The position numbers and the translations under genes were made by a program. Of a DNA stretch of 64,000 nt, positions 5,919 through 63,059 are shown one piece after another. Position 1 is the stretch's first letter. Each line of letters opens with the position of its first letter. The DNA lies in the NCBI GenBank assembly GCA_963762145.1, contig CAVXJS010000019.1:356371-420370 (forward strand), given 5' to 3'. A model generated the notes under the pieces. The model saw only the letters and a list, made by a program, of their open reading frames with translations, was not told the DNA's origin and ran no database searches. This DNA comes from an uncultured Candidatus Rokubacteria bacterium (GTDB lineage: Bacteria; Methylomirabilota; Methylomirabilia; Rokubacteriales; CSP1-6).

Positions 5919-5924
5919 CGACCC

Positions 5925-12180: not shown

Positions 12181-12287
12181 CGGTCGGGGCATCCCTTTCC
12201 GGGCTATCTGCCGGAACCTTCTCTTTTGTATCCGCTCGGCTCGCCTGCGGCTGCGCCTCGCCAGGCTACTGCGGCGCGGCGGCGCTG

Positions 12288-15288: not shown

Positions 15289-15292
15289 GACC

Positions 15293-16030: not shown

Positions 16031-16148
16031 ATATGTCTCCTCCCTCTGGGCCACCGTGGGTCTGCTCCGCCCGAGAGTATCGTCCCGGCCCGACACGTTC
16101 AAGACTCGCCTTCCGCTCTCGTGCGAGCCGAGCTATGGTGACTAGACG

Positions 16149-17030: not shown

Positions 17031-17081
17031 GCGTCGCACTTATCTTGCTAGTCGACGCTCACGTAGCGGGGTGCGGGCAAC

Positions 17082-17291
17082 GTGACGACAATTCTCGTCA
17101 CCGGTGGGCTGGATTCGACGTCAGCGGTCGCGTATACAACGTCGGCTGAGGCGGGCAGGTCAGTCTTTCGCTCCCGCGAACCCACTGAGCACTGCCGCCG
17201 TATCGCAGGAGTGTCACAAGAGCTGGGTACCGTACCGGAGGAACGAGCGCTTGACATGTTGGAGCCGATTTTCGGCGGCGAGTCCGTCTGA
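17082..17291 (+). pseudogene. Remnant of an NAD-dependent sugar epimerase
   Basis: MTTILVTGG start fused directly to a late-domain-like GRVYNVG segment in another frame, followed by a stop. Confidence 0.4.
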
Positions 17292-17323
17292 GTCTCCGCA
17301 GACATAGAGGATGGGAACGGCAC

Positions 17324-45452: not shown

Positions 45453-46327
45453 TGCCGCGCATGATCCCCTTCGCGAAGGGCCACGGGCTCGGCAACGACT
45501 ACATCGTCATCAACGGCGCGGATCTGCCCTCCCCGCTCACCCCGGGACAGGTGACGCGGATCTGCGATCGCAACTGGGGGGTGGGCTCGGACGGCATCCT
45601 GCTCCTGGTGCCGGCCTGGGCCGGCGGAGACTTCGGCCTCCGGATCCTGAATCCCGACGGCAGCGAGGCGGAGAAATCGGGCAATGGCCTGCGCATCTTC
45701 GCCAAGTACCTCCACGACCACGGCCACGCCAAGCGCGACACCTTCACGGTGGACACCATGGGCGGCCGGGTGGAGTGCCGCTGCCACGTGACCGACGGAC
45801 GGATGAACGTGGTCACCGTCGAGATGGGCCGCTGCACGTTCGTGGCGCCCGAGATCCCCATGAACGGTCCCGAGCGCGAGGCGGTGAAGATCCCGCTCCA
45901 GGTGGCCGGGGAGACCCTGCTCGTCACCGCGGTCTCGGTGGGTAACCCGCATTGCGTGATCTTCACGGACCGCCTCGACGAGGCGCTGGTGCGGCGGCTG
46001 GGGCCGCAGGTCGAGCATCACCCCGCGTTTCCGAACCGTATCAACGTGCAGTGGGCGCGGGTGGCCTCACGGTCGATGGTGGACATCCTGATCTGGGAGC
46101 GGGGCGCGGGCTGGACGCTGGCCTCGGGGTCGTCCTCGAGCGCGGTGGCGTGCGCCGCGGTGAAGAACGGGCTCTGCGATCACGGGCTGGTCACGGTCCG
46201 GATGCCGGGCGGGGAGCTCTCCGTGGACGTGCGGCCCGACTGGTCCATCCGGCTGAAGGGGCCGGTGGAGGAGGTCTATACCGGGACCTTCGCGTCGGAC
46301 CTCATGGTCGCCCTCGAAATGTCGTAA
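45449..46327 (+). CDS. dapF: Diaminopimelate epimerase-like protein with a Ser/Ser catalytic pair
   Basis: KGHGLGNDY, CDRNWGVGSDG, NPDGSEAEKSGNGLR, VGNPH, FPNRINV, WERGAG.TLASGSS. Confidence 0.85.
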   Translation: MMPRMIPFAKGHGLGNDYIVINGADLPSPLTPGQVTRICDRNWGVGSDGILLLVPAWAGGDFGLRILNPDGSEAEKSGNGLRIFAKYLHDHGHAKRDTFTVDTMGGRVECRCHVTDGRMNVVTVEMGRCTFVAPEIPMNGPEREAVKIPLQVAGETLLVTAVSVGNPHCVIFTDRLDEALVRRLGPQVEHHPAFPNRINVQWARVASRSMVDILIWERGAGWTLASGSSSSAVACAAVKNGLCDHGLVTVRMPGGELSVDVRPDWSIRLKGPVEEVYTGTFASDLMVALEMS

Positions 46328-47427
46328 TTCAAGACCTGACCCCCGGCGAGGGCGTTGGAGAGCCAGCGCGCGGCGTAGCCGGCTATCAGGGCGGCGGCGA
46401 GGGTCAGGAGCAGGGCGACGAGCGTTTCGGGGACGCCGGGGGCCATGGCGGCCAGCGAGGGCCGCGACGGCAGGCGCCAGGCGAGCAGCGCGAAGAGCGC
46501 GGCCCCGTAGGCCAGCGTGGCGGCGATGGGACGGCGCCGAGGGTCCACCAGCGCCATCACGAGCGCGGGCCACAGAGCGAAGAGGTGACGGCGGCCGCCG
46601 GTCTGGCCTGCCGGAACCCCCTCCTTGCGGGCCATCAGGGTGGCCACCGCGATCGGGGACGTCGGATCCTTCGTGATCTCCTCGTCGATCACCGAGACGG
46701 GCTGCATGATCTCGAAGCCCGTCTGCGCGATCTGCTGACCGATGAGGCCGAGCCCGATGAGCACGACGAGGAGGCCGATGGGCGCCCAGCGGCTGTTCGA
46801 GAGGCGGGCGGTCGGCACGTGGGCCAGAGGCAGGATCAGCGCCGAGAGAATGGCCAGCGTGTAGAAGAGCACGCCGCCGTGGAGATACGCCACGCGGGTG
46901 GATGGGTCGACCGTGAGGTGCAGCCCGCCATAGAGCACCGCGCCGGTCAGCACGAGCGCGGCGAGCCGGGCCCGGGACCGCTCGGGGTAGACCTCGCGGG
47001 CGATGACCAGGCAGGCCAGGGAGTTGATCACCGCGCCCACGATGCCGAGCAGGTGCGGCGGGCTCCAGAGCGTGACGTCGAGGCCGAAGAGCCGATGCCA
47101 GAGATCATCGATCGGCGCGGCCAGGACCGTCAGGGCGATACCCCAGGCCGCGAGGTGGAAGCCGCGTGTTCCGATGAGACCCAGGACCCGCAGGGCCGGC
47201 GGTGCCTCCGGCGTGCGAGCGGGGCCTCCCGTGAGGGTCTCCCACGCCAGCACGCCGAAGCTCACGAGCACCGCCAGCGCCACCCCCGCGTACGTCATGA
47301 CGTGCGGGGGGATCCAGAAGGAATCACGCCCGATCAGCACGTGCCACTGGATGTCCCACTGGACGCCCCAGCCCGCGATCAGCTTGGAGGCGAGGAGCGT
47401 CCAGAGGGCGCCGCGGCGGATGGACAC
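46276..47427 (-). CDS. Polytopic membrane protein with two DxxWH...PPH motifs
   Basis: WDIQWHVLIGRDSFWIPPH and IDDLWHRLFGLDVTLWSPPH; many hydrophobic segments. Confidence 0.78.
   Translation of the reverse strand: MSIRRGALWTLLASKLIAGWGVQWDIQWHVLIGRDSFWIPPHVMTYAGVALAVLVSFGVLAWETLTGGPARTPEAPPALRVLGLIGTRGFHLAAWGIALTVLAAPIDDLWHRLFGLDVTLWSPPHLLGIVGAVINSLACLVIAREVYPERSRARLAALVLTGAVLYGGLHLTVDPSTRVAYLHGGVLFYTLAILSALILPLAHVPTARLSNSRWAPIGLLVVLIGLGLIGQQIAQTGFEIMQPVSVIDEEITKDPTSPIAVATLMARKEGVPAGQTGGRRHLFALWPALVMALVDPRRRPIAATLAYGAALFALLAWRLPSRPSLAAMAPGVPETLVALLLTLAAALIAGYAARWLSNALAGGQVLNYDISRATMRSDAKVPV
46316..46343. repeat. REP-like family B, solo arm
   Basis: GAAATGTCGTAATTCAAGACCTGACCCC is the exact reverse complement of 22789-22816. 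Confidence 0.85.
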
Positions 47428-47974: not shown

Positions 47975-48086
47975 CGGCACTACCTCCCGGCGCGCGGAGA
48001 AGAAGCGGAACGCGCGCGTGAATTCGACTCTACACCCGGGTTCCCGGACGAGGCAACGCGGCGCGAGAAAATCTCGCGATCATGCT

Positions 48087-48500
48087 ATGATCCCCGGAAC
48101 CTTGAGAGCCTTCTGCGCCTGGTGTCAGCGAGAAGGGGGACCGGCCTTCCTCGGCGAACGTGAACCGTTCGACGATGACAGCGAGACCCATGGAGTCTGC
48201 CGGCGCCACCTCCAGAACATCCTGGCCGCGCTCCCCTCGCAGTCCTTTCCGGACGTGACGTACCTCTTCGTCATCCGACCGGGGGAGACCGCCCTCCACG
48301 ACCACCTGGAGCGCGCCTTCCTGGGCGTGCGCGGGGTGAAGATCATCATGGAGCGGCGGGCCGGGGATCGGCGCTCGACGCATCGGCGGGCCGCGCACGA
48401 TCGGCGCCGCACCGACCGGCGCCAGCCCCGGGGCACATCCCACGCGCTCGGCTACACGACGGTGCGCTTCAGCCGCGCGGCGGTGGGGCAGGGCGACTAG
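48087..48500 (+). CDS. Hypothetical protein with a CxxC/HxxCxxH site and an Arg-rich tail
   Basis: CAWC...THGVCRRH; ERRAGDRR..HRR..DRRRTDRR. Confidence 0.65.
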   Translation: MIPGTLRAFCAWCQREGGPAFLGEREPFDDDSETHGVCRRHLQNILAALPSQSFPDVTYLFVIRPGETALHDHLERAFLGVRGVKIIMERRAGDRRSTHRRAAHDRRRTDRRQPRGTSHALGYTTVRFSRAAVGQGD

Positions 48501-48504
48501 CGGA

Positions 48505-48786
48505 CTAGGTGCCCGGCTTGCCCAGGCGCTGCAGCGCCACGGTGGCGAGCCGGGTGACGTGCTCGGCGATGGCCTTCAGCGTCTCGGCCGCCTCGATCCG
48601 CTCCGTCCGATAGGCCGCGAGCTCCTGGCTGAGGGTCTCGATACTCTCGCGGAGCTGCCGATTCTCCCGCTCGAGCTCGTCCGCCTGAGCCCGCTGCCGC
48701 TCATGATCCTGAAGGGTGCCCAGCACGGCCCCGAACAAACGCTCGCCCTCCTGCACCCAGCCAATCAGGTCCTGGACGGACGACAT
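48505..48786 (-). CDS. Hypothetical coiled-coil protein
   Basis: MSSVQDLIGWVQEGERLF...ELERENRQLRESIETL heptads. Confidence 0.55.
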   Translation of the reverse strand: MSSVQDLIGWVQEGERLFGAVLGTLQDHERQRAQADELERENRQLRESIETLSQELAAYRTERIEAAETLKAIAEHVTRLATVALQRLGKPGT

Positions 48787-49030
48787 GGGGGGGAAGAATA
48801 CCACGAGCCTTGGAACCCTTAGCCCGCGCAAACCCTGCGCTTGATGGGAATTCCCTAACTATATGGTTTCACTCAGGTTCCGCTCTCCGACGAGAATCGC
48901 GGCGACGTCCCCGCGCAGAATCTCCAAAGGATGGAATATCTTTGCCCAACCAGTAGAGGGAACTACCCCTCCATGCCGCGCCGTAATCATCGCGTAAACA
49001 ATAAGTTAGCTTGGTTGCGGCATTCCTTTG

Positions 49031-49047
49031 CTGGCACCGCGCTTGCT
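49031..49047 (+). promoter_or_regulatory. Sigma-54 promoter of the fkbH operon
   Basis: CTGGCACcgcgcTTGCT near-consensus -24/-12; IHF-like AAACAATAAGTTA at 48996-49008. Confidence 0.75.
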
Positions 49048-49118
49048 CTCTTTTCGCCGGCGACCGCGGTTTTCGATAACTTGCACTGTGCACGCACAGC
49101 GAACGGAGCAGTCGATCA

Positions 49119-50915
49119 ATGAGTGAGAGCCGCAACCTGGACTACTTCCATTTGCTGAAGGAAGCCAAGCGAGTCACGGCTTCCGGGCACAAGCCCGTCA
49201 GACTCGCCGTTCTGGGCGATTGCGCGACGCAGCATCTGATCCCGCTGCTTCGGGCCCTGTTCTCCCGTCACGGGCTCGCGGCCGACATCTACGAGGCCCC
49301 CTTCGATGCGGCGGACGTCGAGGCCCGGAACCCGCACTCCGGCCTCTACCAGCACCAGCCCGAGATCGTCGTCGTCCTGAGCACGGTGCAGGCCCTGCGA
49401 GACAAGTTCTACCAGCGCGCCGGATCCGCGACCGCCTTTCGCGACGAGACCCTCGATCGCCTCACGAGCGTCTGGGACTCGCTCCGCGCGCACAGCCAGG
49501 CGCTTCTGATTCAATCCACCTTCGTCGCCCCGTTCGAGCGCATCTTCGGCCACTACGACCGGCAGGTTCCGGCCTCGCTCTCCTCGATCGTGTCCGACGT
49601 CAACGCGGCCATCGTGACCGAGGCGCGGACGCGCGGCAACCTCCTGCTGCTCGATCTCGAGCATCTGGCGTCCTGGGTTGGCCGGCGTTCCTGGTTCGAC
49701 GAGCGCATGTGGGCCCTCGCCAAGCTGCCCGCCGCCCTCGAGCACCTCCCGCTGGTGGCCCAGAGCATCGTCGACGTGACGCTCGCGGCGAGGGGCCGGG
49801 CCGTGAAGTGCATCGCCCTCGATCTGGACAACACCCTCTGGGGGGGCGTGGTCGGCGACGACGGCCCGCACGGCATCCAGATCGCCGCGCACGGTGACGG
49901 GGAGGCGTTCCATCGGTTCCAGTCCTTCCTCAAGGAGCTCAAGAACCGCGGGATTCTCCTGGCGGTGTGCAGCAAGAACGAGCACGAGAACGCGGTCCGG
50001 CCGTTCGAGGTCAACGCCGAGATGGTCCTCAAGCTCGAAGACATCACCGTCTTCGTGGCCAACTGGGAAAACAAGGCGGACAATCTCCGCCGCATCCGCG
50101 ACGCGCTGAACATCGGCCTGGACTCGATCCTCTTCCTGGACGACAACCCGTTCGAGCGTGCCGCGGTCCGCGCGATGAGTCCCGAGGTCATGGTCCCGGA
50201 GCTGCCGGAGGATCCGGCCGACTACGTGAAGGCGCTGGTGGAGCTGAACCTGTTCGAGACCACCGCGTTCTCGGCGGAGGACGCGGCGCGGTCGACGCTC
50301 TACCGCCAGGAAGCTCAGCGGCGAATGGCGGAGACCACCGCGGCCAGCTTCGAGGACTACCTTCTGTCCCTGGACATGACCATCGAGGTGAGCCGGTTCG
50401 CGCCCGAGCAGATCAACCGGATCACGCAGCTCCTGCAGCGCAGCAACCAGTTCAATCTCACGACCCAGCGGCACAATCAGGCACAGTGCGAAGCGATGAT
50501 GCAGGATGTCGAGGGCTGCTGGCCGCTGACCGCGACCCTTCGCGATCGCTTCGGCGATCACGGGCTGATCTCGGTCGTCGTCGCGCGGCCGGACCGCGGC
50601 GCGGGCGTCGTCGTGATCTCCGACTGGCTGATGAGCTGCCGCGTGCTCACCCGTGGCGTCGAGGAATACCTGATGAACGAGGTGGTGGAGCGGGCCCGCG
50701 AGCTCGGCATGTCCACCGTCACCGCGTCGTACGTGCCGACCGCGAAGAACGGCATGGTCAAGGATTTCTACGCGCGATTCGACTTCCAGAAAGTCGTCGA
50801 GCATCCGGACGGACGAATCGAATGGATGCTGCAGGTCGATCAATACGAGCCGCGCCAGGTGTTCATCCGTCCCGCCGCCGCGGCGGTGACGGTCGCGGCG
50901 GACGGAGACCGATAA
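49119..50915 (+). CDS. fkbH: FkbH-like HAD-IIIC glyceryl transferase/phosphatase
   Basis: KCIALDLDNTLWGG, CSKN, NWENKA, FLDDNPFE, RSNQFNLTT, DRFGDHG, LMSCRVL. Confidence 0.92.
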   Translation: MSESRNLDYFHLLKEAKRVTASGHKPVRLAVLGDCATQHLIPLLRALFSRHGLAADIYEAPFDAADVEARNPHSGLYQHQPEIVVVLSTVQALRDKFYQRAGSATAFRDETLDRLTSVWDSLRAHSQALLIQSTFVAPFERIFGHYDRQVPASLSSIVSDVNAAIVTEARTRGNLLLLDLEHLASWVGRRSWFDERMWALAKLPAALEHLPLVAQSIVDVTLAARGRAVKCIALDLDNTLWGGVVGDDGPHGIQIAAHGDGEAFHRFQSFLKELKNRGILLAVCSKNEHENAVRPFEVNAEMVLKLEDITVFVANWENKADNLRRIRDALNIGLDSILFLDDNPFERAAVRAMSPEVMVPELPEDPADYVKALVELNLFETTAFSAEDAARSTLYRQEAQRRMAETTAASFEDYLLSLDMTIEVSRFAPEQINRITQLLQRSNQFNLTTQRHNQAQCEAMMQDVEGCWPLTATLRDRFGDHGLISVVVARPDRGAGVVVISDWLMSCRVLTRGVEEYLMNEVVERARELGMSTVTASYVPTAKNGMVKDFYARFDFQKVVEHPDGRIEWMLQVDQYEPRQVFIRPAAAAVTVAADGDR

Positions 50916-50919
50916 CGCC

Positions 50920-51159
50920 GTGGACGAAGACATCCAGCTCCGACTCACCGAGATCTTTCGGTCCGTGTTCGATGACCCGGACCTGCGCATCACCGCGGAC
51001 ATGACCGCCAAGGACGTTCCCGACTGGGATTCCCTTTCCCACATCACCCTGATCGTGGCGATCGAGCGCGAGTTCCGCATCCGATTCACCACGGCCGAGG
51101 TCGCCTCGCTGATGAACGTGGGCGACCTGGCCGACCGCATCCGCAAGAAGCTCCCCTGA
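50920..51159 (+). CDS. Acyl carrier protein
   Basis: DWDSLSHI phosphopantetheine motif; 79 aa, acidic. Confidence 0.9.
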   Translation: MDEDIQLRLTEIFRSVFDDPDLRITADMTAKDVPDWDSLSHITLIVAIEREFRIRFTTAEVASLMNVGDLADRIRKKLP

Positions 51160-51174
51160 GGAGGCCCCGTTCCC

Positions 51175-52593
51175 ATGCAGTTGTCGTCCGTGGAGTTCCT
51201 GCTGTTCGTCGGCCTGTCGGCGCTGGTATTTCGCGCGGTGGGCCGGGCGTGGCGGGCGCACGTCCTGCTCGTGGCTTCGTACGTGTTCTATTGCACGTGG
51301 GATCTCGGCATGGCGGCGGTCCTGCTCGCGATCACGGCCGCGTGTTACGTCGCGGCGCTGTACATCGAGAGCGCCCGGGGCCGGCCGCTGGCATCGCGGC
51401 TCATCGTGGCCACGGTATCCGCCCTGATTCTCTACGTGGTCGTCTTCAAGGTCCGGGCGGTGCTGACGCCGGGGGCGAGCCTGGTCATCCCCCTGGGGGT
51501 CTCGTACTATAGCTTCCGCCTCATCAGCTACCTGCTGGACGTCCACTGGGGAACGGTCCCCGCCGAGCGCGCCTTCGTGCCTTTTGCGGCGTATGTCGCG
51601 TTCTTTCCCCAGATGATGGCCGGCCCCATCGAGCGGGCGTCCTCCTTCCTTCCACAGCTGGACCGGGGAGAGGGCAGCGCGCCGGGGAGAACCCTCGAAG
51701 GGGTGGCCCGGATCCTCCTCGGCTTCTTCAAGAAGTTCGTGGTGGCGGACAACCTGGGCTTGATCGTCGACTACGGCTACCGGCACCTCGGCTCGGACAA
51801 CGCGGTACCCAGCGCGCTCTCCTTCTACCTGTACCCGTTGCAGCTCTACGCGGACTTCTCGGGGCTGGCCGACATCGCGATCGGGGTGAGCCTGGTCTTC
51901 GGCCTGAAGGCGCCGGAGAACTTCGACGCCCCCTTCACGGCGTCCAGCATCAGTGAGTACTGGCGCCGCTGGCACATGACCCTCACGTCGTGGCTGCGGG
52001 ACTACGTGTTCCTGCCCCTCCGGATGGCCACCCGGAACTGGGGAACGTATGGCCTGGTGGTGAGCGTGACCGTGAACATGATGCTGATCGCGGTCTGGCA
52101 CGGCTTCACGCTCGGATTCGTCGCCTTCGGGGTGGTGAACGCGGTGGTCCTGGTGATCGACGCCCTGACCGCGCCCCGGCGCCAGAAGTACTGGCGGCGG
52201 CATCCCGGGTCCGCCAAGCTGGCGACCTTCGTCGGGGTGATCTTCACGTACCACATCGTGGCGCTGAGCGACACGTTCTTCCGGGCCCCGTCGTTCACGG
52301 AGGCCGCGCTACTGCTGGGCGGTCTGGCCTCGGGGCTGGAGCACGCCGGATCGGCGCTCGCGGCGGCCACCGCACCGCCGAATCACTACGCCTGGGTGGC
52401 CCTTCCCGGATACGTTCTGGCCGAGATCGCGGACACGATCCGAAGAAGACGAGGCCTGAGCTTGCCAGAAGGAGCGCCCCGGTGGGTCCAGTGGTCGGCG
52501 GGCGCCTGCATCGTGCTGGCGTGCGTGTTCGTGTCGCTCCTGTTCCTCGCACGGCAGACGGAGACGAATCCCTTCGTGTATGCGAATTTTTAG
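51175..52593 (+). CDS. MBOAT O-acyltransferase (AlgI/DltB-like)
   Basis: PLGVSYYSF..ISY..D, FFPQMMAGPI, LYADFSG, NF..PF...I.EYWRRWH, IAVWHG, F.YANF. Confidence 0.92.
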   Translation: MQLSSVEFLLFVGLSALVFRAVGRAWRAHVLLVASYVFYCTWDLGMAAVLLAITAACYVAALYIESARGRPLASRLIVATVSALILYVVVFKVRAVLTPGASLVIPLGVSYYSFRLISYLLDVHWGTVPAERAFVPFAAYVAFFPQMMAGPIERASSFLPQLDRGEGSAPGRTLEGVARILLGFFKKFVVADNLGLIVDYGYRHLGSDNAVPSALSFYLYPLQLYADFSGLADIAIGVSLVFGLKAPENFDAPFTASSISEYWRRWHMTLTSWLRDYVFLPLRMATRNWGTYGLVVSVTVNMMLIAVWHGFTLGFVAFGVVNAVVLVIDALTAPRRQKYWRRHPGSAKLATFVGVIFTYHIVALSDTFFRAPSFTEAALLLGGLASGLEHAGSALAAATAPPNHYAWVALPGYVLAEIADTIRRRRGLSLPEGAPRWVQWSAGACIVLACVFVSLLFLARQTETNPFVYANF

Positions 52594-53812
52594 AGATCTG
52601 CTGGCGACCGTGGTGGTGGTGATCGCCTTCGTGGCGCTCTTCGAGGGCGGCCTGCGTCTGGCCGGGGTGCGGTACGAGTATTCGTTCTACGAGAGCGATC
52701 CGGTCCTCTACACGACGTACCGTCCGTACGCGGAAGGCTGGGAGGTCAAGGAGGGCGAGAATTTCGTCCGGATGAACAGTCTCGGCATGCGGGATCGGGA
52801 GCGGAGCATCGAGCCTGCGCCGGGGACCGTACGGATCGCTCTCCTCGGCGACTCCGTGGTGGCGGCAACGCAGGTGCCGCTCGAGCAGACCATGGGCCAG
52901 GTGCTGGAGCGCCGGCTCAGTAGCGAGTTCAGCCGGACCGGCGCCAGGTTCGAGGTCCTCAACTTCGCCCAGGGGGGAAACACGCTGGCCCAGCAGCACC
53001 TGATGATCCGGGAGCGGGTCTGGGCGTTTCGGCCCCAGATCGTCATCGTATTCGTGACTCCGATCTCGGTTCCGACGGCGAGCCGAAAGCTGGACACGGT
53101 CGCGGCGCCGAAGCCCTTCTATATCATGCGGGCCGGCCAGCTCATCCCGGACCCGCGGAACCATCCTCCCGCGGCTTCCGCTCCGGCCGCTCGCCGCACG
53201 AACGGCATCCTCAAGAACGTGATGAACCGCTATCGCCTGCTGCTCGTGCTGCGCCAGGCGAGCGACCACGGGCTCGATAAGCTCAGGGCACTGCGCCATG
53301 TGACCCGGAGCGCAGACGCCTCCACAAACGCCGAGCCAGATCAGAACAAGTCCCCGATGGACATCTGGTTTGGGCCTCCGACCAGGCCTGAAGTGGACGA
53401 GGCCTGGCAGGTGGTGGAGGGGCTTCTGGGCCTGATCGCCGAAGACACGCATCGGCACGGGACGGAGCTGTGGATGGCCAGCATCGGGCCCGCGGTGCAG
53501 GAGAATCCCGACGCTCGCAATCGCCTGGCTTACCTGAGCGCGCAGGGCTACACCGGGACATACTCGGAGGATCGTTTCGAGATGTTCGCCAAGAAACATG
53601 GCATCCCCTACGTTCGGATGTCGCCGCGTATACTTGCGCATGCGGAACGACACGGTGTCTCGGTGCGCGGATTCTTCAATACCCAGCCGAATCAGGGGCA
53701 CTGGAACGTGGAGGGGAATGCCGTCGCCGCCGGGCTCATCGGGGATGAGCTCCTGGCACGGAGCCACGCGCTCCGCACGCTACGCGAGGCCGGACCGCGC
53801 CAGGCGCGGTGA
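52580..53812 (+). CDS. Membrane-anchored SGNH/GDSL-like protein
   Basis: N-terminal TM, NSLGMRD, LLGDSVV, EVLNFAQGG, GHWNVEG. Confidence 0.78.
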   Translation: MRIFRDLLATVVVVIAFVALFEGGLRLAGVRYEYSFYESDPVLYTTYRPYAEGWEVKEGENFVRMNSLGMRDRERSIEPAPGTVRIALLGDSVVAATQVPLEQTMGQVLERRLSSEFSRTGARFEVLNFAQGGNTLAQQHLMIRERVWAFRPQIVIVFVTPISVPTASRKLDTVAAPKPFYIMRAGQLIPDPRNHPPAASAPAARRTNGILKNVMNRYRLLLVLRQASDHGLDKLRALRHVTRSADASTNAEPDQNKSPMDIWFGPPTRPEVDEAWQVVEGLLGLIAEDTHRHGTELWMASIGPAVQENPDARNRLAYLSAQGYTGTYSEDRFEMFAKKHGIPYVRMSPRILAHAERHGVSVRGFFNTQPNQGHWNVEGNAVAAGLIGDELLARSHALRTLREAGPRQAR

Positions 53813-53815
53813 CGC

Positions 53816-54436
53816 ATGAGCCGGCGCGCCCTGCGCGTCCTCGGGGGGGCAACCCTGCTCATCTTCCTGCTCGCGGCGTTCACGCCGGCAGTCAACCTGT
53901 GGAGCTTCTGGCTGGCGCCGCCGCCGGTGAAGGCCGATCCGGTGGAGGCCATCGTCGTCCTGGGCGGCGGCGGGGTTACCCCGGGAGGAATGCTCGTCGA
54001 GCGGTCACTGGGCGAAACCGTCAAGGCGATCATGCTGTACCGCAAAGGGATCGCGCCTCTGGTGGTCTTCTCGGGCTCGCCGGAGCCGGGCACGCGCGAT
54101 GAAGCGTCCACGCGAGCCGATCTGGCGCGGGAGTGCGGGGTACCGTCCTCGGCGATCCTGACCAGCTCGAGTGCCCAGACGACACGGGAGGAGGCCGTGC
54201 AGATTCACCGGCTCCTCAGCGCGCGCGGGGTCCGCACGGTGATGCTCCTGGCCGACGGCCCCGGCATGCCGCGGGCGGTGAGAACGTTCGAGCGGCAGGG
54301 CTTCGTGGTGGTGCCGCCCCCGGGGTCCGGCGTGCTGAGCCTGGGCGGCGGCCCCGAGGACCGGCTGAGTCTCGCGCGGCAGATGGCGATCGAGATGGTC
54401 GCGCGCCTGTACTATCGGCTCGCGGGCTTCCTGTGA
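53816..54436 (+). CDS. YdcF/ElyC (DUF218) family protein
   Basis: EAIVVLGGG, VFSG, DEA, TTREEA, MPRA..F. Confidence 0.8.
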   Translation: MSRRALRVLGGATLLIFLLAAFTPAVNLWSFWLAPPPVKADPVEAIVVLGGGGVTPGGMLVERSLGETVKAIMLYRKGIAPLVVFSGSPEPGTRDEASTRADLARECGVPSSAILTSSSAQTTREEAVQIHRLLSARGVRTVMLLADGPGMPRAVRTFERQGFVVVPPPGSGVLSLGGGPEDRLSLARQMAIEMVARLYYRLAGFL

Positions 54437-54440
54437 TCGG

Positions 54441-54749
54441 ATGCCGATGGATCACGCCTTTCTCGTCTTGCTCGTTGGCACAACCTCGGCGGCCGCGCTG
54501 CTCGTCGGGATACGCGGGCTGCGCTTGCCCCGCGCCCGGCTGGTGGTGGGGCTCTGGGGCGCGCTCGAGCTGCTGGGGGTGTCGGTCCTCTTCTTCGTCG
54601 CCAATCTCGTCGTGGGCCTCACGGTGATCCTCGCGGTGCGGGCCGTCACGACTCAGTTCCTGTCCGTGTACCTCTTGAACGATGTGGGGCTCCTGGTGCT
54701 CTCGGTCGTCCAGGGACTCGTCTTCGAGTGCTGGCGCCGCGGCAGCTGA
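54441..54749 (+). CDS. Small membrane protein
   Basis: Three hydrophobic segments; follows directly after the DUF218 gene. Confidence 0.6.
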   Translation: MPMDHAFLVLLVGTTSAAALLVGIRGLRLPRARLVVGLWGALELLGVSVLFFVANLVVGLTVILAVRAVTTQFLSVYLLNDVGLLVLSVVQGLVFECWRRGS

Positions 54750-54760
54750 GAACCAGTCCC

Positions 54761-55039
54761 CTAGAACCAGCTCGCGACGGCGCTGTGCAGCGCTCTGAAC
54801 AGCAAGAGACCGACGTAGGTAACGACCAGGAACCCGAGAAACAGCCCGACGTGGTGAAGCACCCGCCCGGAGCGTGAGGGTCGGACGCGACGGAACCCGT
54901 GATGCGGCAACGGATGGAGCGTCGGCAAGGCGGTCCGGTAGAACCGGCGCCGGGCTCGCCGGGCCCACACCCCTTCGATCAGACCGCCGATGATGCTGAA
55001 GGTGAGCGCGGCAAGCGCGAGGAGCATCAAGGTGGTCAT
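54761..55039 (-). CDS. Small two-TM hypothetical protein
   Basis: MTTLMLLALAALTFSII...VGLFLGFLVVTYVGLLLF. Confidence 0.45.
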   Translation of the reverse strand: MTTLMLLALAALTFSIIGGLIEGVWARRARRRFYRTALPTLHPLPHHGFRRVRPSRSGRVLHHVGLFLGFLVVTYVGLLLFRALHSAVASWF

Positions 55040-55306
55040 CGGGGCGGCGGGACTCCTGGTCTCTGGCGGCGCGCTCTGTCTTCTCCTCAGGCGGCCGTGG
55101 GCTGGGAGTGTATCAGCACCTTGTGAGCGATTACAAGGACGCGGGTACAGGAGCGGCATCCAGCGGCGGCATCCAGCGGCCCATTTACCACTGGTTTTCA
55201 GGCATATGCATCCGATTGCATCTTGCCAGGCGGCTTGGCATGAGTGATTGTGTTGCATGCCTCCTGCACCTAGCTTGACGACTTCGCGCTCCGAAGGGAG
55301 CCTGAC

Positions 55307-56915
55307 ATGACGTGGCGCATCCTGCGAATGGCGGCGGTCTTCTCGGCTGTATGCGGGCTCCTGGTCGGGGCCGGAGCGGTCCACGCGCTGCCAATCGCGG
55401 GGGTGGAGGAGGCGCCGGCCTTGCCCACCACGTTCGTGGACACGTCACTCGTCCCCTCGACGGGACAGACCATCCAGGTGGGAGCGGGCGGGGACCTGCA
55501 GGCCGCCTTGAACAGCGCGCAGCCGGGCGACGTCGTCTCGATCGCCCCGGGGGCGACGTTCGTCGGCAATTTCACGCTGCCAAAGAAGGCCGGGGATGGC
55601 TGGATCACGGTGCGGTCGGCGGCACCGGACGAGAGCCTGGCGCTTCCCGGGACCCGCGTGACCCCGGCACAGGCGGCGGCGATGCCCAAGCTGATCAGCC
55701 CGAACAGCGCGCCGACGGTGACCGCGGCCCCCGGCGCTCAGGGTTATCGGTTGATCGGCCTGGACGTCTCGGTCGCGCCGAGCGTGAATACGATCTTCAA
55801 CATCGTCGCGTTCGGGGGGAGCAGACCTCGCTCGCGGACACGCCCCGCAATCTGATCATCGACCGGTCCTATATCCACGGGCAGCCGCAGACCAACACCT
55901 TTCGCGGCGTCCTGCTGAATAGCGCGCAGAGCGCGGTCATCGATTCCCACGTCTCGGAGATCCACGTGAACGGGTTCGACTCGCAGGCCATCCTGGGCTT
56001 CAATGGCCCGGGGCCGTTCAAGATCGTGAACAACCGTCTCGAGGCGTCGGGGGAGAACATCATGTTCGGCGGGGCCGATCCGAAGAGCCCCGGCCCTCTC
56101 GCCGGCCGACATCGAGATCCGGAGGAATCATCTGTTCAAGCCGCTGTCCTGGAAAGCGGGCGACCCCTCCTTCGCGGGCACCGAATGGACGGTCAAGAAC
56201 CTGCTCGAGCTGAAGAACGCACAGCGCGTGCTGATCGACGGGAACCTGCTCGAGAACAACTGGCAGCAGTCTCAGAACGGCGTCGCGGTGGTCTTCACGC
56301 CCCGGAATCAGGACGGTACCGCGCCTTTTTCGGCCGTGCGGGACGTGACGTTCACGAACAATCGGGTACGCAACGTGACCGGCGGAATCGCGATGCAGGG
56401 CTTCGACGACGGGAACCCGAGCCAGCAGCTGCAGCGCGTGCTCGTGCGGAACAACCTGTGGGAGGGGCCTCAGGGAAGGTTCGTGCTCATGGTGGGGCCG
56501 ATCGAGGGCGTGACGATCGATCACAACACGGCGCTCGGGATGACCCACTCCGCGATCTTCGGCACGAATGCGCCCAGCCCGGGATTCGTGCTGACGAACA
56601 ATCTGCTCGCATTACGGTCTGTTCGGGATCGGAGGGGATAGCGCGATAAGTGGGATTCCGGCGCTTGCCCTGTACTTTCCCGGCGCGCTCGTGGAGGGAA
56701 ATGTGCTGATCGGTTCCGGCGACAACGGGCAAAACCAGCTCGATTCCTTGCCGTCGCTCAACTTCGTCGAGCTGAGCTTGTTGGACGTAGGATTCATCGA
56801 TCCGGCCACCGGCGACTTTCGGCTCTCCGACCTCAGCCCATATCGTCTCGCCGGCACCGACGGTAAAGATATCGGCGTCGATTTCGCCGCCCTCATCGCG
56901 GCGATGCTCGCGGGA
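55307..56915 (+). CDS. Exported right-handed beta-helix (pectin-lyase-like) protein; frameshifted, 3' end lost at a junction
   Basis: Signal peptide; GGDLQAALNSAQPGD, IDRSYIHG, GPFKIVNN.LEASGENIMFGG, VKNLLELKNA, GDFRLS..SP...GTDGKDIGVD. Confidence 0.8.
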
Positions 56916-56950
56916 GCAGCAGCCTGGAGTCCCTGCCGCGCCTGGACTAG

Positions 56951-56963
56951 AGTACGTATTGCT
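56951..56963 (+). other. Probable nanopore ligation adapter remnant (chimera junction)
   Basis: AGTACGTATTGCT versus adapter end CAGTTACGTATTGCT; the genes on both sides break here. Confidence 0.7.
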
Positions 56964-57250
56964 GGAATTCGAGGCACATCTGACGAGTGCGGGCGCGGCC
57001 AGCGGCCGTGAGGTGGTGGTCACTTCGAGCCCGCGGGCCTTCACCTTCTACCCAACGCCCCTGCACCAGCGCTTCCCGCTCGAGCCGCGCCAGCAAGCGG
57101 ATAGATCGTGCCTTCGGTCAGCACCAAGTCAGTACCGGCCAGCTGTTTCAGGATCTCGAGGCCGTAACGCGGCTCCGGCGCAATCGCCAGCAGCACCGCA
57201 AGTTCGAGCAGGCCCCTCCGCATTTGTTCCTGCCAGTTGGCGATCGGCAT
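56964..57250 (-). CDS. PadR-family transcriptional regulator, frameshifted and 3'-truncated
   Basis: QMRRGLLELAVL, RYGLEI, EGTIYPLLARLE...W....PRAR...LTAAGR. Confidence 0.82.
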
Positions 57251-57270
57251 GATCCGGCGCTCGTGACCTT

Positions 57271-57291
57271 ATACCTTGTGACACAAGGTAT
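57271..57291. promoter_or_regulatory. Palindromic operator upstream of padR
   Basis: ATACCTTGTG-A-CACAAGGTAT perfect 10-bp inverted repeat, 20 nt before the start codon. Confidence 0.7.
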
Positions 57292-57326
57292 CAACAGAGA
57301 CGAGGGGGACGCGCACGAAAGTTCCG

Positions 57327-58610
57327 CTATCGGGAAGGACCGCCTCCGCGTCCGCGACCGCCGGCCGGACTCGGGATCACGTAATCCCTCGGCGGCTCGG
57401 CACCGAGCAGGTGCTTGACGAAGTAGTCCCATCGCCGGCGCATGACGTAGTTCCCGTGCAAAGCCATGCCCCGAATTCGGGATCATCAGCAGGTCGAATT
57501 CCTTGTTCGCCTTGATGAGTGCGTCGGCGACCAGGTACGTGTTGTACGGCGGCACGTTGTTGTCCATCGTCGCCGTGGATCAGCATCAGATGGCCCTTCA
57601 GGCCCGCGGCCTGCGTCTGGTTCGCCTCGATCGTGTAATTGTCCGTGCCGTCCGGTTCTGCAGCGGCCCCTGATACCGCTCGCCCCAGTCATCCTCGTAC
57701 TGGCGCTGGTCGTGGTTGCCCGACTCGGCGATCCCGACCTTGAAGAAATCGTTATACGGTGCACGCAGCAGCCGTCCCGCCGTGATGAAGCCGCCGCCGG
57801 AGTGCCCCCACATCGCGGTGCTGCTCGATATCGATCCACGGGAAGCGCTGCGCGAGTTCCTTCATGCCACTGATCTGGTCGGGGATGGTGTTATGCCGTC
57901 CCATCGCGCCGTAATAGGCGTCGGTGAACGCCTTCGAACGGTTCAGCGTACCGGTGCCGTCGATGCTGACGACGACGAAGCCGAGTTCGGCGAGCGCCTG
58001 CCGGTCGCCGCGCGCCGCACTGAAGGCGCGTGAGCCCACGCTGCCCGACTGCGGACCGGGATACGCCTGGTTGATGATCGGATACTTCTTGCTCGGATCG
58101 AAGTTCGTCGGCCGGAAGAGCATCCCGTAGATGTCGTGGCGGGCCGTCGGCAGACTTCATCTTCACTTGCATCGGCGGTTTCCAGCCGGTTGCCAGCAGC
58201 TTCGGATGTCGGCCTTCTCGAGCGGCATGATGAGTTCGCCCGTCTTCGCGTCGCGCAGCGTGGTCTCGGGCGCCACATCCGCCTGTGAGAAGGTGTCGAC
58301 CACGAACTTGCCGTCGGGCGAGAGCTGCACCGAGTGGGTGCCGTTGTCGGGCGTGAGCGAGACGTTGTTCTTCCCGTCCAGCCCGATTCGATAGAGGTGG
58401 TGAAGTAGGGATCCTGCCCCTTCTCCTTGCCGACCGCCTCGTACCACATCGTGCGAGTCGGGGCGATCGATGCCGGACGACGCGGGTCACCATGCCGGCG
58501 CCGTCAGTGATCTTGTTCTTGAGTTGCCCGGATATCAGTTCGTACAGGTATAGCTGTGCGTAGCCGTCGCGCTGCGAGTACCACAGCACCTCGCTGCTGT
58601 CCCAGAAGAT
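57327..58610 (-). CDS. S9 (DPP-IV-like) peptidase, C-terminal part, many frameshifts
   Basis: KKYPII..YPGPQ, LAELGFVVV, WGHSGGGF, GNHD, MDNNVPPYNT, NKEFDLL...GHG, RRWDYFVKHL. Confidence 0.82.
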
Positions 58611-58689
58611 CTGCAAAGCCCCCTGCACACCTGCTCGACTCGTCGTCTTGTACGTCGTAGCCGGGCCACCGAGTCTAAAAGCGAGTCCG

Positions 58690-59351
58690 CTCGATGCACT
58701 GAAACGCGCCGAACCGGAAGATACAGTCGTGATCTACTTCGCTGGTCACGGTACTGCGCAGGCGCAACGGTTCTACCTGATACCTCACGATCTCGGTTAC
58801 ACAGGCGAACGCACCAAACTAACCGAACAGGGTTTGAAGACCATGCTCGCGCACAGTATTTCCGACGTCGAGTTGGAAAAGGCGGTCGAAGGGCTGGATG
58901 CCGGACACCTGTTGCTGATCATTGATGCGTGCAATTCCGGTCAGGCGCTCGAAGCGGAAGAGAAACGGCGTGGTCCAATGAATTCAAAAGGGCTGGCCCA
59001 ACTCGCTTACGAAAAAGGAATGTACATCCTGACGGCGGCGCAGAGTTTTCAGGCCGCGCTGGAAGCGGCGCAGCTTGGTCATGGTTACTTGACCTATGCG
59101 CTGGTTGAAGAAGGCTTGAAAACGCCTATCGCTGACAGTGCGCCTAAAGATGGTCTGGTGATTGCGCGTGAGTGGCTCAACTTCGCCACCGAGCGCGTGC
59201 CGCAGATGCAGGAAGAAAAGATGAGCGCAGGGACGTGGACGTTGGATTGAGATAGCGTTTACGTGAAGGCGAGAAAGCGCACCGTGCAACGTCCGCGCGT
59301 GTTTTATCGTAGAGAGCTGGAAGCGAATCCGTTGGTGATAACAAAGCCTAG
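58690..59351 (+). CDS. Caspase-family (C14) domain protein, 5'-truncated
   Basis: IYFAGHG and IIDACNSG dyad, LGHGYLTYAL, Q.P motif; frameshift near the end. Confidence 0.8.
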
Positions 59352-59358
59352 ATAGAGT

Positions 59359-59421
59359 ACAGGATTTTCACGGATGTGCAAGATAAATCCTGTTCATCCT
59401 GCTTAATCTTGTTAATCCTGT
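59359..59421. repeat. ACAGGATT...AATCCTGT short palindromic intergenic repeat
   Basis: ACAGGATT at 59359; AATCCTGTTCATCCTG and TTAATCCTGT downstream. Confidence 0.55.
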
Positions 59422-59438
59422 GGCAACAAACCGTAACC

Positions 59439-61686
59439 ATGGACCATTCCATCGGCAAATCGGTTCCCCGCAAAGAAGGCCGCAAGAAAGTCACCGGCCA
59501 GGCGCTGTACGTCGATGATCTGTCGTTTCCGGACATGCTTCACGGCGTGACAGTGCGCAGCCCGGTTCCGCGCGGGCGAATCAAAAACATCTCGTTCGAA
59601 GGCGACATTCCCTGGGACGAGTTCACCATCGTCACCGCCAAAGACATTCCCGGCGAAAACTACGTCGCGCTGATTCTGAACGATCAGCCCTATCTCGCCG
59701 ACGAATTCGTCAATCACCCCGAAGAACCAATCGTGCTGCTGGCTCATCACGACAAATACCTGCTCGAAGAAGCGCGCCGCAACGTGCGCATCGAGATCGA
59801 AGAGCTGCCCGCGGTCTTTCACTCGAAGATTCGCTCGCACAAGAAAGAGATCATCTGGGGCGAAGACAACGTCTTCAAAAAGTTTCTGGTTGATAAAGGA
59901 AATGTCGACGACGCCTGGGCCAACGCTGACTTCATCGTCGAAGGCGAATACGAAACCGGCGCGCAGGAACAGCTCTACATCGAGAACAACGGCGCGATCG
60001 CCATCGCGAATCCAGACGAAGGCGTGACCGTTTGGGGCTCGATGCAGTGTCCTTACTACGTTCACAAAGCGCTGGTTAAGTTGTTTGGTCTGCCGGAAGA
60101 AAAGATTCGCGTGATTCAAACTGAAACCGGCGGCGGCTTTGGCGGCAAGGAAGAGTATCCGTCGCTGATTGCCGGCCACGCGGCGTTGCTCGCGTGGAAA
60201 TCCGGCAAGCCGGTGAAGATGATCTACGACCGCGCCGAAGACATGGTCGCGACCACCAAGCGCCATCCGTCGCGCACGCGTCACAAAACCGCCGTCACGA
60301 AAGACGGAAAACTTCTGGCGATGGAGATCGATTTCGTGATCGACGGCGGCGCGTACTGCACGCTGTCGCCGGTCGTGCTTTCGCGCGGAACGATTCACGC
60401 CGCCGGTCCTTACTTCTGTCCCAACGTGCGCATTCACAGCCAGCGCCGTGGCGACGAACGTGCCGCCGCACGGCGCGTTCCGAGGATTTGGCGCGCCGCA
60501 AAGCATCTTCGCGCTCGAGCGGCACATGGACAAAGTTGCGCACGCGGTTGGTCTGACGCCCGGAAGAGTTTCGCCGCCGCAACTTCATTCACGAAGGCGA
60601 AACGACGGCGACGAGCCAGGTGATTCGCGAAAACGTCGACATGGACGGACTGCTCGACTCGCGCGTTTGAGTTGACCGACTACCACGCGAAGCGCGAACG
60701 CTTTGCGCGCGAGAACATCGCGCAGCAACGGACGCTTCTCGAAAAAGCAGGCATCGGCTTCGCGTCGTTCATGCACGGCGCGGGCTTTACCGGTTCCGGC
60801 GAGGTTTATCTGCAATCGGTGGTCGGCGCTGAAGCGACTGCCGAAGGCCGGGTGCGAATTCTCGCCGCCAGCACCGAGATCGGCCAGGGAACCAACACGA
60901 TCTTTTCGCAGATTGCCGCCGAGGCGCTCGGTCTCGATTCGATCTGATCGAAGTCGTCCAGCCGGATACCGGCAACGTTCCCAACAGTGGGCCGACGGTC
61001 GCTTCGCGCACGTCGATGGTCGTCGGCAAGCTGGTTGAGTCGGCGGTGCTGGGTTTGAAGCAGACGCTTGATCGGCAGCGGCTTGTTGAACGGAGGAGTA
61101 CACGCAGTCAGAGTTTCAAGAAGCTGTGCGCGAATACATCGCGAAGTTTGGCCCGCTGAAAACTTCAGTCAAGTATCAGCCGCCGCCGAACGTTCATTGG
61201 GACGATGAAAAGTATCAGGGCGACGCGTACGGCGCTTATGCCTGGGCGGTTTACGTGGCTGAAGTTTCGTTTGACGAGTTGACTTACGAAGCGCACGTCG
61301 AGGATTTCGTGGCGGTGCAGGAAGTCGGGCGCGTGATCAATCCGGTGCTGGCGGCGGGACAGATCGAAGGCGGCGTGGCGCAGGCGATCGGGTTCACGTT
61401 GTTTGAAAACGTGGTCTGGAAAAACGGCCGCATGGCGAACAACCAGATGACCAACTACATCATGCCGACGCCCGCCGACATTCCGCCGATTCGCGTCTAC
61501 TTTGAAGAGAACCCGTACGCCTACGGCCCAGGCGGCGCGAAAGGAATCGGCGAGCTGCCGATGGACGGCGCCGCGCCGGCGATACTGAATGCGATCGAGA
61601 ACGCGACCGGCGTGAGTTTCAACCACGTCCCGTTGATGCCCGAGAAGATTGATGGAAGGATGTGCAGATCTACAGGATTCGCATGA
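59439..61686 (+). CDS. Xanthine dehydrogenase-family molybdopterin-binding subunit, frameshifts
   Basis: KVTGQALYVDD, QEQLYIE, TGGGFGGKE, KRHP, GAFRGFGAPQ, EIGQGTNT, VASRT, GQIEGG, GAKGIGE. Confidence 0.88.
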
Positions 61687-61716
61687 TTTATGCAGATCTG
61701 CAAATCTGTAATCGCA

Positions 61717-62179
61717 ATGTCTATGCAATCGAGCTTCAAGGTTAACGGCGAGGCGCGCAGCGTCGAGGTGTTTCCGATGGCGCGCCTGCTCGACGTGTTG
61801 CGGGAGCAGTTGCACTGACGGGCACGAAGGAAGGGTGTGGCGAAGGTGAGTGTGGCGCGTGCACGTTGATCATCGACGGGCAGATCGTGAACAGTTGTCT
61901 GGTGCCGGTGGCCCAGGTTGATGGCGCTGAGATCACGACGATCGAGGGTGTTGCCGGCAACGGACGAACTGCACGCAGTGCAGCAGGCGTTCATCGATCA
62001 CGGCGGCGCGCAATGCGGCATCTGTACGCCGGGAATGGTGCTGGCCGCAGTCGATCTGCTCAAGCGAAATCCCGCAACCAACTGAAGCTGAAATTCGCAA
62101 CGGCCTGGCCGGAAATCTTTGTCGCTGCACCGGCTACATGAAGATCTTCGAATCAGTAGTGCGCGCTTATCAGAAGTGA
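61717..62179 (+). CDS. 2Fe-2S subunit (CoxS/XdhC-like), frameshifts
   Basis: [41 protein letters not shown]. Confidence 0.87.
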
Positions 62180-63042
62180 GAGCCTTCATTCCAGATTACC
62201 AGTTAACAACGCCGGCGTTCGCTTGCGGACGCTCTCGCGCTGCTCAAGAACGAACCCGGCGTTTGGAAACCATTTGCCGGCGGCACAGATCTGATGGTCC
62301 TGCTCGAAGCCGGCAAGCTGGACCATCGCAACTACGTCAACATCTGGAGCTTGAACGAACTGCGTGGCATCGAAGTGACTGACGCACACATCACTCTCGG
62401 CGCGCTGACGACTTACACGGAAGTTCAGGCACAATCCGATTTTGCGCAGCGAGTTTCCGATGCTGTGTCAGGCCGCGAGTGAAACCGGCGGCCTCGCAAT
62501 TCAAAATCGCGGCACACTCGGTGGCAACATCGTCAACGCTTCACCGGCCGCAGATTCGCCTCCCGCCCTGCTCGCCTACGACGCCGAAATCGAATTGGTA
62601 TCGACGCGCGGCTCGCGCTGGCTTCCGTATCACGGTTTTCACACCGGCTACAAGCAGATGCACATCGCTCCGGACGAATTGCTGGCGCGAATTCGTCTGC
62701 CGCGCAACACCGCAGGCGCGACGCATTACTATCGCAAAGTCGGCACGCGAAAAGCGCAGGCGATTTCGAAAGTCTGTTTTGCTGCGGTCGCGCGAATTGA
62801 ACAGGGACAATCGACGGACATAAGAATCGCTGTCGGAAGTGTTGCGCCGATCGTCGTTCGCTGCGTGCAAACAGAAAACGCTTTGCGCGGACAAAAGCCC
62901 GACGCTGAAACCATTCAGGCAGCCTGCGCGAGCCTGTTGCGCGAGATCTCTCCCGATCGACGACATTCGCTCGACTGCAAAGTATCGTTTGCAGGTCGCG
63001 CAAAACTTGCTCACTGACTTTCTATCAACTTTAGAAACTTAG
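62176..63042 (+). CDS. FAD-binding subunit (CoxM/XdhB-like), frameshifts
   Basis: FAGGTDL, IQNRGTLGGNIVNASPAAD, KVGTRKAQAIS, PIDDIRSTAKYR. Confidence 0.87.
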
Positions 63043-63059
63043 CTCTCGTTTACTTGTAG

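Follow-up and report, generated by a model that had tools for sequence, protein, structure and literature searches.

The 64-kb window analysed here, the whole stretch taken from contig C19 (CAVXJS010000019.1) of the genome of an uncultured Candidatus Rokubacteria bacterium (an assembly of 6.26 Mb in 25 contigs, 88% complete), contains an operon of six co-directional open reading frames (ORFs) at 49119–54749 (+). The first gene encodes a long-form FkbH protein of 598 amino acids (aa), in which an FkbH_N domain is followed by a HAD-IIIC phosphatase domain and a C-terminal transfer domain (49119–50915, +). It is followed by genes for a dedicated acyl carrier protein (ACP) of 79 aa, with Ser38 in a WDSL motif (50920–51159, +), a DltB-like MBOAT of 472 aa, with a fused C-terminal FVYANF sequence that includes Tyr469 (51175–52593, +), and a predicted membrane-anchored SGNH-fold acyltransferase partner of 410 aa, with Ser92 and His374 (52580–53812, +). 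The last two genes are lineage-specific, and encode a membrane-anchored DUF218 (ElyC/SanA-like) protein (53816–54436, +) and a hydrophobic protein of 102 aa that belongs to no known family (54441–54749, +). The gene junctions measure, in order, +4, +15, −14 (an overlap), +3 and +4 nt, which bears out the tight coupling of the six genes described in an earlier note on this DNA.

The first four genes recur together in a wide range of bacteria. A scan of one genome per species returned at least 595 relatives of the FkbH protein, and the best 80, with 33–67% identity, were used to examine neighbouring genes by tblastn with the window proteins. These 80 loci span Acidobacteriota, Alpha-, Beta- and Gammaproteobacteria, Myxococcota, Planctomycetota, Cyanobacteria, Leptospiraceae and Omnitrophota, and also come from Chloroflexota, Actinomycetota, Gemmatimonadota, Bacteroidota, Synergistales, Desulfovibrio and many Clostridia. 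An ACP gene is present in 74/80 loci, no more than 600 nt from the FkbH gene in 59 of the 74, and an MBOAT gene in 62/80, no more than 3 kb from the FkbH gene in 58 and on the same strand in 57 of the 62; both occur together in 61/80. Relatives of the SGNH partner were found by direct tblastn in 4/80 loci only. After four rounds of iteration, an SGNH profile detected 46 ORFs in 40/81 loci, and in 32/63 MBOAT-bearing loci the MBOAT gene has an SGNH/AlgX-like ORF no more than 1.5 kb away, a count that is softer than the others because profile iteration can drift. Some of these SGNH-like partners have AlgX or DHHW matches in Pfam. The synteny of fkbH, acp, mboat and sgnh genes across genomes, which the earlier note had proposed as a check on its interpretation, is borne out by these counts. 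The contrary arrangement, in which fkbH–acp pairs would normally be linked to polyketide synthase (PKS) genes, was not seen, as there was no PKS or non-ribosomal peptide synthetase (NRPS) among 46 neighbour proteins scanned in related loci, large ORFs included.

Additional genes recur at many of these loci. They encode an SDR (17 loci), a MaoC dehydratase (12), a MaoC–SDR fusion (8), VOC-fold proteins (11+4), methyltransferases (5) and a transketolase pair (5 loci). Glycan-type neighbours in other loci include GT2, Wzc-like and Wza-like proteins, a sugar epimerase and UDP-glucose dehydrogenase. Judged from gene content, the conserved core is FkbH, ACP, MBOAT and an SGNH-like partner, often situated in glycan loci and with optional tailoring enzymes, and the window operon is a minimal cassette of this kind plus the two lineage-specific genes.

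One copy of the cassette lies on pSymB of Sinorhizobium meliloti (CP140883.1), where the genes encode a VOC protein, an MBOAT (tail FLYQGF), a 409-aa protein, an ACP and a product annotated as 'HAD family hydrolase'. The gene for the 409-aa protein (7263–8492 of locus L093), annotated as a TonB-dependent receptor, is situated between the MBOAT and ACP genes. By position its product corresponds to the SGNH-like partner; it carries a GGS motif around residue 113 and was unmatched by the SGNH profile at E 10 or better. The TonB-dependent receptor annotation looks doubtful.

Assignment of the first gene product to the FkbH family rests on a score of 314.5 bits against TIGR01686 (cut-off 146.65), together with 70.3 bits against the HAD-IIIC model (cut-off 35.75) and a PF21211 (FkbH_N) match at 3.7e-26. 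HAD motif I, DxDxT, is present as D235-L-D237-N-T239 and is invariant in 19/19 aligned homologues, as is S506-C507-R508 in the C-terminal domain. We take Cys507, a residue whose presence is what was observed here, to be the acyl-S-enzyme site. The closest homologues have 79–81% identity, and one of them is labelled Methylomirabilota bacterium by its source. Residues 11–385 match PDB entry 3slr, an uncharacterized Bacteroides fragilis protein, at 1.3e-81. Plasmid-encoded matches that bear a type I polyketide synthase or an FkbM-family methyltransferase label align only to residues ~193–565, and hence represent a short form without FkbH_N. A role in glyceryl-ACP formation is described for FkbH-like enzymes with standalone ACPs in a published account (PMC7489565).

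The ACP of the operon has a PP-binding domain (PF00550, 4.2e-6) with the serine in a DSL motif, and W36, D37 and S38 are invariant in 32/32 cassette ACPs. Among solved structures, the best relative is a putative ACP (2lml, 7.7e-19), and its matches in NCBIfam are weak and of the AcpP type only.

The MBOAT matches PF03062 (8.3e-25), and its only sequence relatives in the PDB are DltB chains (2e-34, residues 84–367). H267, H309 and Y469 are invariant in 36/36 sequences. The protein extends ~100 residues beyond the DltB match, and its tail, FVYANF, fits the FxYxxF acyl-shuttle motif. A 2025 paper on mechanism terms FXYXXF an 'acyl shuttle' motif: its Tyr becomes acylated in both DltX and PatA, and in non-Dlt MBOAT/SGNH pathways, which have no carrier protein because acyl-CoA is used, the MBOAT itself contains the motif by fusion (PMC12148441). 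Of 54 clustered cassette MBOATs, 36 end in an exact FxYxxF tail, and ~8 have a variant tail such as I/L-V-Y-K-x-F. A further ~9 are DltB-sized (400–438 aa) and have no FxYxxF tail (for example those of loci L015, L020, L023, L027, L028, L050 and L059); a separate DltX-like microprotein might be used instead by these enzymes. In loci L017, L052 and L036, the MBOAT and the SGNH-like partner are apparently fused in one ORF of 760–890 aa.

In Pfam the SGNH partner gave only a weak GDSL_2 match (0.0025). Structural comparison confirmed the call, as the fold of its AlphaFold 2 model (predicted local distance difference test, pLDDT, 84.9; predicted template modelling score, pTM, 0.85; N-terminal helix at residues 2–27) matches SGNH hydrolases, at VIA Z 15–22. 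The best of these structural matches is 8a2n (Z 22.5), and many are esterases (Z 15–17). PatB is among the Foldseek matches; DltD and AlgX are absent from the Foldseek/VIA matches listed. G90, S92 and H374 are invariant in 23/23 sequences.

Prediction of the ACP–MBOAT complex, also suggested in the earlier note, gave a score of 0.41, compared with 0.00 for the best of three controls. The runs share at least 90% of contacts and the partner pLDDT is at least 82. The mark applied is passed by 116/157 solved complexes and by 2/215 mismatched pairs, and the scores of 0.60 or below that pass it belong to 18 of the 157 solved complexes and to both of the passing mismatches. The prediction is therefore above its controls but weak, and since a solved DltB–DltC complex exists, the pass may reflect likeness to that pair only.

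The DUF218 protein matches PF02698 at 6.2e-19 and the ElyC model of NCBIfam at 1.7e-12, which is below the cut-off of that model. The 102-aa protein has no match in Pfam or NCBIfam, and its closest Atlas clusters are hypothetical proteins of 101–104 aa from Rokuibacteriota, Acidobacteriota and Methylomirabilota (scores 0.94–0.95). Neither protein was found by tblastn in any of the best 80 FkbH-relative loci, so that they are part of the operon in this lineage and not of the four-gene core. Both are conserved within the genus. The operon was found in one of 20 other same-genus genomes (G002), in which the six genes are in identical order with 60–80% protein identity (61% for the DUF218 protein and 62% for the 102-aa protein). 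The left flank is syntenic in G002, and synteny stops just after the gene for the 102-aa protein, at position 54749 of the window.

A sigma-54 type −24/−12 element, TGGCACCGCGCTTGCT (49032–49047, +), stands 72 nt upstream of fkbH in the form TGGCAC-N5-TTGCT. It is the sole exact match in the window to TGGCAC-N5-TTGCW, which we take to be the sigma-54 consensus. With one mismatch allowed, the window has three matches where 1.12 would be expected, a count that is not significant on its own. The element upstream of the orthologous operon in G002 reads TGGCACTTTGCTTGCT, and the bases that flank it have diverged; it is this conservation amid diverged DNA, not the motif count, that lends weight to the promoter call. 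Upstream of the element is an IHF-like site, AAACAATAAGTTA (48996–49008, +), with one mismatch to the IHF consensus WATCAANNNNTTR. The window has six sites of this quality, where 3.5 are expected, and the aligned site in G002, AATCAATCGGTTG, is an exact fit to that consensus. Both the near-consensus promoter and the upstream IHF-like site of the earlier note are upheld by these comparisons. The genome has HU/IHF-family genes, every one of which scores below the himA cut-off.

In addition, a 32-nt block (48933–48964, +) that begins to rise ~70–100 nt ahead of the −24 element is conserved. In a pairwise alignment with G002, invariant columns upstream of the promoter are nowhere denser than in this block, which is a candidate enhancer-binding site (upstream activating sequence, UAS). 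The block is read in different frames in the two genomes, and is therefore not a shared ORF. Its 24-nt core has a single occurrence in the 6.26-Mb genome with up to three mismatches allowed; in view of the lack of a second genomic copy, no regulon was drawn. The genome encodes RpoN (449.9 bits) and ~21 strong sigma-54 activators, none of them in the window. No sigma-70-like promoter, or terminator above chance, was found in 48500–55400. In 1.3 Mb of the best 80 loci, the strict sigma-54 motif occurs twice and in neither case upstream of FkbH, which indicates that sigma-54 control is not general to the cassette. Conservation of the element thus provides good support for sigma-54 control of this operon as a feature specific to its lineage; the earlier proposal of such control stands for the operon, but not for the cassette.

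There is a clear likeness to the Dlt system, which D-alanylates teichoic acids, in that genes for an MBOAT and a membrane-anchored SGNH-fold protein stand beside a carrier protein gene. The MBOAT is homologous to DltB, and an acyl-Tyr shuttle followed by an acyl-Ser intermediate is the chemistry proposed in each case (PMC12148441). Unlike Dlt, the operon lacks a DltA-type ligase (an AMP-binding domain is present in 0/6 proteins), in place of which there is an FkbH-type HAD loader. It also has no ORF for a DltX microprotein, the 102-aa protein ending in ...CWRRGS and the FxYxxF motif being fused to the MBOAT. The MBOAT falls under the DltB cut-off, the SGNH partner has no DltD match in Pfam at E 0.01 or better, the predicted acyl group is a hydroxy-acid rather than an amino acid, and the host is a diderm-type uncultured bacterium. 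With PatA/PatB and other MBOAT/SGNH pairs that O-acetylate peptidoglycan and exopolysaccharides, the operon shares an MBOAT with two extra C-terminal helices that end in FxYxxF, an invariant His, and a separate SGNH partner with Ser and His. Those systems are described as fed by acetyl-CoA and without a carrier protein (PMC12148441), whereas a dedicated ACP and its loader are co-encoded and co-conserved here. The gene content, with ACP and MBOAT beside FkbH in 61/80 loci, argues against an acyl-CoA donor used without a carrier.

The FkbH modules that form methoxymalonyl-ACP or tetronates likewise combine an FkbH domain with a standalone ACP and have the same predicted substrate, 1,3-bisphosphoglycerate. 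Here, however, there are no dehydrogenases, O-methyltransferase, FabH-like enzyme or PKS, the consumer would be a membrane acyltransferase pair, and the FkbH is the long form with FkbH_N. On the best reading of these comparisons, the cassette would belong to neither Dlt nor PatA/PatB and would be a hybrid of both. The Dlt-like glyceryl-export system suggested in the earlier note is sustained in its architecture and synteny; the operon is not simply Dlt-like, as it has no DltX, and FxYxxF is fused to the MBOAT as in PatA/AlgI-type enzymes.

We propose, with a probability of roughly 0.55, that this sigma-54-dependent operon encodes a carrier-protein-fed MBOAT–SGNH relay, which transfers an acyl group derived from glycerate to an extracytoplasmic polymer. 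The proposal starts from the observed gene content, linkage, conserved residues and fold. For the acyl substrate, the topology, the acceptor and each of the transfers, we infer the following route. FkbH, on the basis of its family assignment only, would take 1,3-bisphosphoglycerate, strip the 3-phosphate and load the glyceryl group onto the phosphopantetheine of ACP Ser38. Glyceryl-ACP would dock at the cytoplasmic face of the DltB-like MBOAT, His309 of which would help to shift the acyl group to Tyr469 in the enzyme's own FVYANF tail, at the outer face. The membrane-anchored SGNH protein would then receive the acyl group on Ser92, with His374, and use it to esterify a hydroxyl group on an envelope polymer, for which a polysaccharide or a lipid-linked glycan intermediate is the likeliest candidate. 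It is a matter of speculation that the co-transcribed ElyC-like DUF218 protein points to a lipid-linked intermediate. There is no dehydratase, reductase or methyltransferase in this copy of the cassette, so the group is expected to stay glyceryl. In sister cassettes, MaoC and SDR enzymes could turn glyceryl into lactyl, by analogy with a proposal for lactate starter units.

Several observations weigh against this proposal. The substrate of the long-form FkbH is assumed from distant characterized relatives, and the ACP gave no match to the DltC model at E 0.01 or better. The MBOAT scores 189.9 bits against TIGR04091 (DltB), its sole NCBIfam match, under the equivalog cut-off of 375. The Asp of the classical SGNH triad is not conserved in the partner, the window clade having N-x-G-H, with Asn before the His, and the predicted ACP–MBOAT complex lends weak support only. 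The FkbH loci without an MBOAT in the DNA available number 18/80, several of them being short or cut by contig ends, and in at least one of the 18 a FabH-like gene is next to FkbH–ACP. Near the operon, family scans of the window ORFs revealed neither glycosyltransferases nor genes for polysaccharide export. Finally, the presence of the operon in only one of 20 other same-genus genomes indicates that it is dispensable.

The same relay could deliver a different acyl group, if FkbH loads something other than glycerate, or if the glyceryl group is altered ahead of transfer by enzymes encoded elsewhere, for instance to lactyl. The SDR, MaoC, VOC-fold, methyltransferase and transketolase genes added in many sister cassettes suggest that the family as a whole delivers several small acyl groups, and no role has been assigned to the additional FkbH_N domain at the N terminus. 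However, the window operon and its G002 copy are both without tailoring genes, and the HAD and C-terminal catalytic motifs are those of the FkbH family model, so that we regard a different group as unlikely in this case, though worth keeping in mind. The acceptor, too, might be something other than a polysaccharide, such as peptidoglycan, a glycolipid or lipid A, a lipoprotein or a surface protein. This would be in keeping with the lack of glycan synthesis genes flanking the operon in the window and with the resemblance of the DUF218 protein to ElyC, whose NCBIfam model is named as an envelope biogenesis factor. Known MBOAT–SGNH pairs also act on peptidoglycan and lipoteichoic acid, besides exopolysaccharides (PMC12148441). 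The frequent occurrence of the cassette in other phyla among glycosyltransferase, Wzc, Wza and sugar-nucleotide genes tells against such acceptors, which seem to us distinctly improbable.

The two remaining explanations separate FkbH and ACP from the membrane proteins. In one, the MBOAT–SGNH pair is an ordinary acetyl-CoA-dependent O-acetyltransferase, and the neighbouring FkbH and ACP feed a separate cytoplasmic product. The fused shuttle motif of the MBOAT is that of the acetyl-CoA-using PatA/AlgI class, and pathways of the non-Dlt type are stated to have no carrier protein (PMC12148441). Such an arrangement is hard to reconcile with the recurrence across phyla of ACP and MBOAT beside FkbH, mostly as same-strand neighbours, with the translational coupling of the window genes, or with the lack of any other consumer of acyl-ACP in the operon. 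The ACP–MBOAT prediction also counts against it, weakly, and we consider it highly unlikely. In the other, FkbH and ACP would provide polyketide or tetronate biosynthesis with a unit derived from glycerate, their classical role and the sole one described experimentally for FkbH–ACP in the literature found (PMC7489565). The FabH-like gene beside FkbH–ACP in one of the 80 loci would fit this role. Family scans of the window ORFs showed that genes for a FabH-like enzyme, an FkbI/K-type dehydrogenase or an O-methyltransferase are absent from the operon and its vicinity, and no PKS or NRPS domain was found among the 46 window ORFs scanned, in agreement with the earlier note. The neighbour proteins scanned in related loci likewise include no PKS or NRPS, and the plasmid matches with PKS or FkbM labels are of the short form, confined to residues ~193–565. 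We give this explanation hardly any credence for the window operon.

The G+C content is ~66–74% across 40–56 kb of the window. To the left of the operon, family scans identified housekeeping genes, for citrate synthase, DapF and an FKBP isomerase. Directly upstream of the operon are two small genes with no family match, at 48084–48497 (+) and 48505–48831 (−), the second of which is divergent from the operon; both are kept in the same-genus genome. An ORF of 383 aa at 46276–47427 (−) has a coding-like codon bias and no Pfam match. It is absent from the otherwise syntenic same-genus stretch, which points to an indel between the DapF and FKBP genes. In the region 56000–64000, G+C drops from ~0.67 to 0.51–0.63, and the ORFs resemble gene fragments. 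Fragment-like pieces include those of an S9 peptidase and DPP-IV (57752–58447, −), a caspase domain (58648–59250) and a xanthine-dehydrogenase-type molybdopterin protein (59376–60623).

In one soil metatranscriptome run, 0.06 of the sampled sequence words were present. Seven contigs of 151–245 nt matched the operon stretch, five at 95–99% identity and two at 90–95%. They fall on parts of fkbH, and one crosses the fkbH–acp junction (50780–51024). These contigs represent a near relative in an RNA library and are not proof of transcription of the operon, and nothing follows from the stretches that they leave uncovered.

The genome that holds the window has a second FkbH locus, on contig C2 (26000–44000, locus L091; ~3719–18001 within that stretch). 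Two sigma-54 activator genes, at 3719–5119 (−) and 5850–7568 (−), adjoin the FkbH gene, which is broken over three frames (7958–9833); the frameshifts are either real or assembly errors. The genes after FkbH encode an ACP, an aminoglycoside-3-N-acetyltransferase-family protein and an ATP-grasp-like protein, and there is a sigma-54-like motif at 14128. The locus also contains sugar-nucleotide genes for an epimerase/dehydratase, a C-methyltransferase and a DegT aminotransferase. This locus may be involved in N-acylation of an amino sugar.

There is a chemical precedent for glyceryl esters on a bacterial exopolysaccharide, as gellan from Sphingomonas carries O-glyceryl (L-glycerate) esters. Several of the best 80 cassette loci are from Sphingomonas and Novosphingobium. 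No gene linked to gellan glycerylation was found in searches of openly accessible papers. Within the same scope, no description of an FkbH–ACP–MBOAT–SGNH route was found, and no work that combines FkbH and DltB. Searches for FkbH with MBOAT returned work on aeruginosin or suomilide natural products only; those for FkbH with polysaccharide and acyl carrier protein returned irrelevant work only, and those for MBOAT with acyl carrier protein and SGNH a cellulose review only. Judged by title, the FkbH literature since 2015 concerns natural products or unrelated topics, with the exception of one Campylobacter paper. The nearest hint is cj1302, a gene with an fkbH domain in the flagellar glycosylation locus of Campylobacter jejuni (PMC7099621). 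The 2025 mechanism paper gives Dlt as the only MBOAT/SGNH pathway that is fed by a carrier protein (PMC12148441).

The observation reported in the earlier note is confirmed. Its interpretation is supported in part: the architecture and synteny hold, and the chemistry is suggested by analogy. Extending the glyceryl relay proposed here to the cassette as a whole, we suggest tentatively, and at somewhat less than even odds, a second carrier-dependent bacterial MBOAT pathway, a hybrid of Dlt and PatA/PatB, in which glyceryl-ACP fed from glycolysis would pass its acyl group, with the help of an MBOAT His, to a fused Tyr, then to an SGNH Ser, and from there to an envelope glycan. The core, together with optional dehydratase, reductase, VOC and methyltransferase genes, would provide a general route to glyceryl, lactyl and related hydroxy-acyl surface esters, possibly including those of gellan, and in the organism studied here it would be switched on through sigma-54 and a dedicated upstream site.

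Acyl decorations alter the charge of the bacterial surface, gel properties, and recognition by phages and the immune system. If the proposed pathway is correct, a widespread FkbH-fed version would extend the donor chemistry by something new, a hydroxy-acid taken straight from glycolysis, and would suggest genes for glycerate esters that are known but genetically unassigned. Cultured carriers of the cassette exist, such as S. meliloti with its pSymB copy, and Bradyrhizobium and Sphingomonas also include carriers. For the uncultured soil lineage itself, the sigma-54 promoter and the conserved sites upstream of it would offer a route to asking when such a bacterium remodels its surface.

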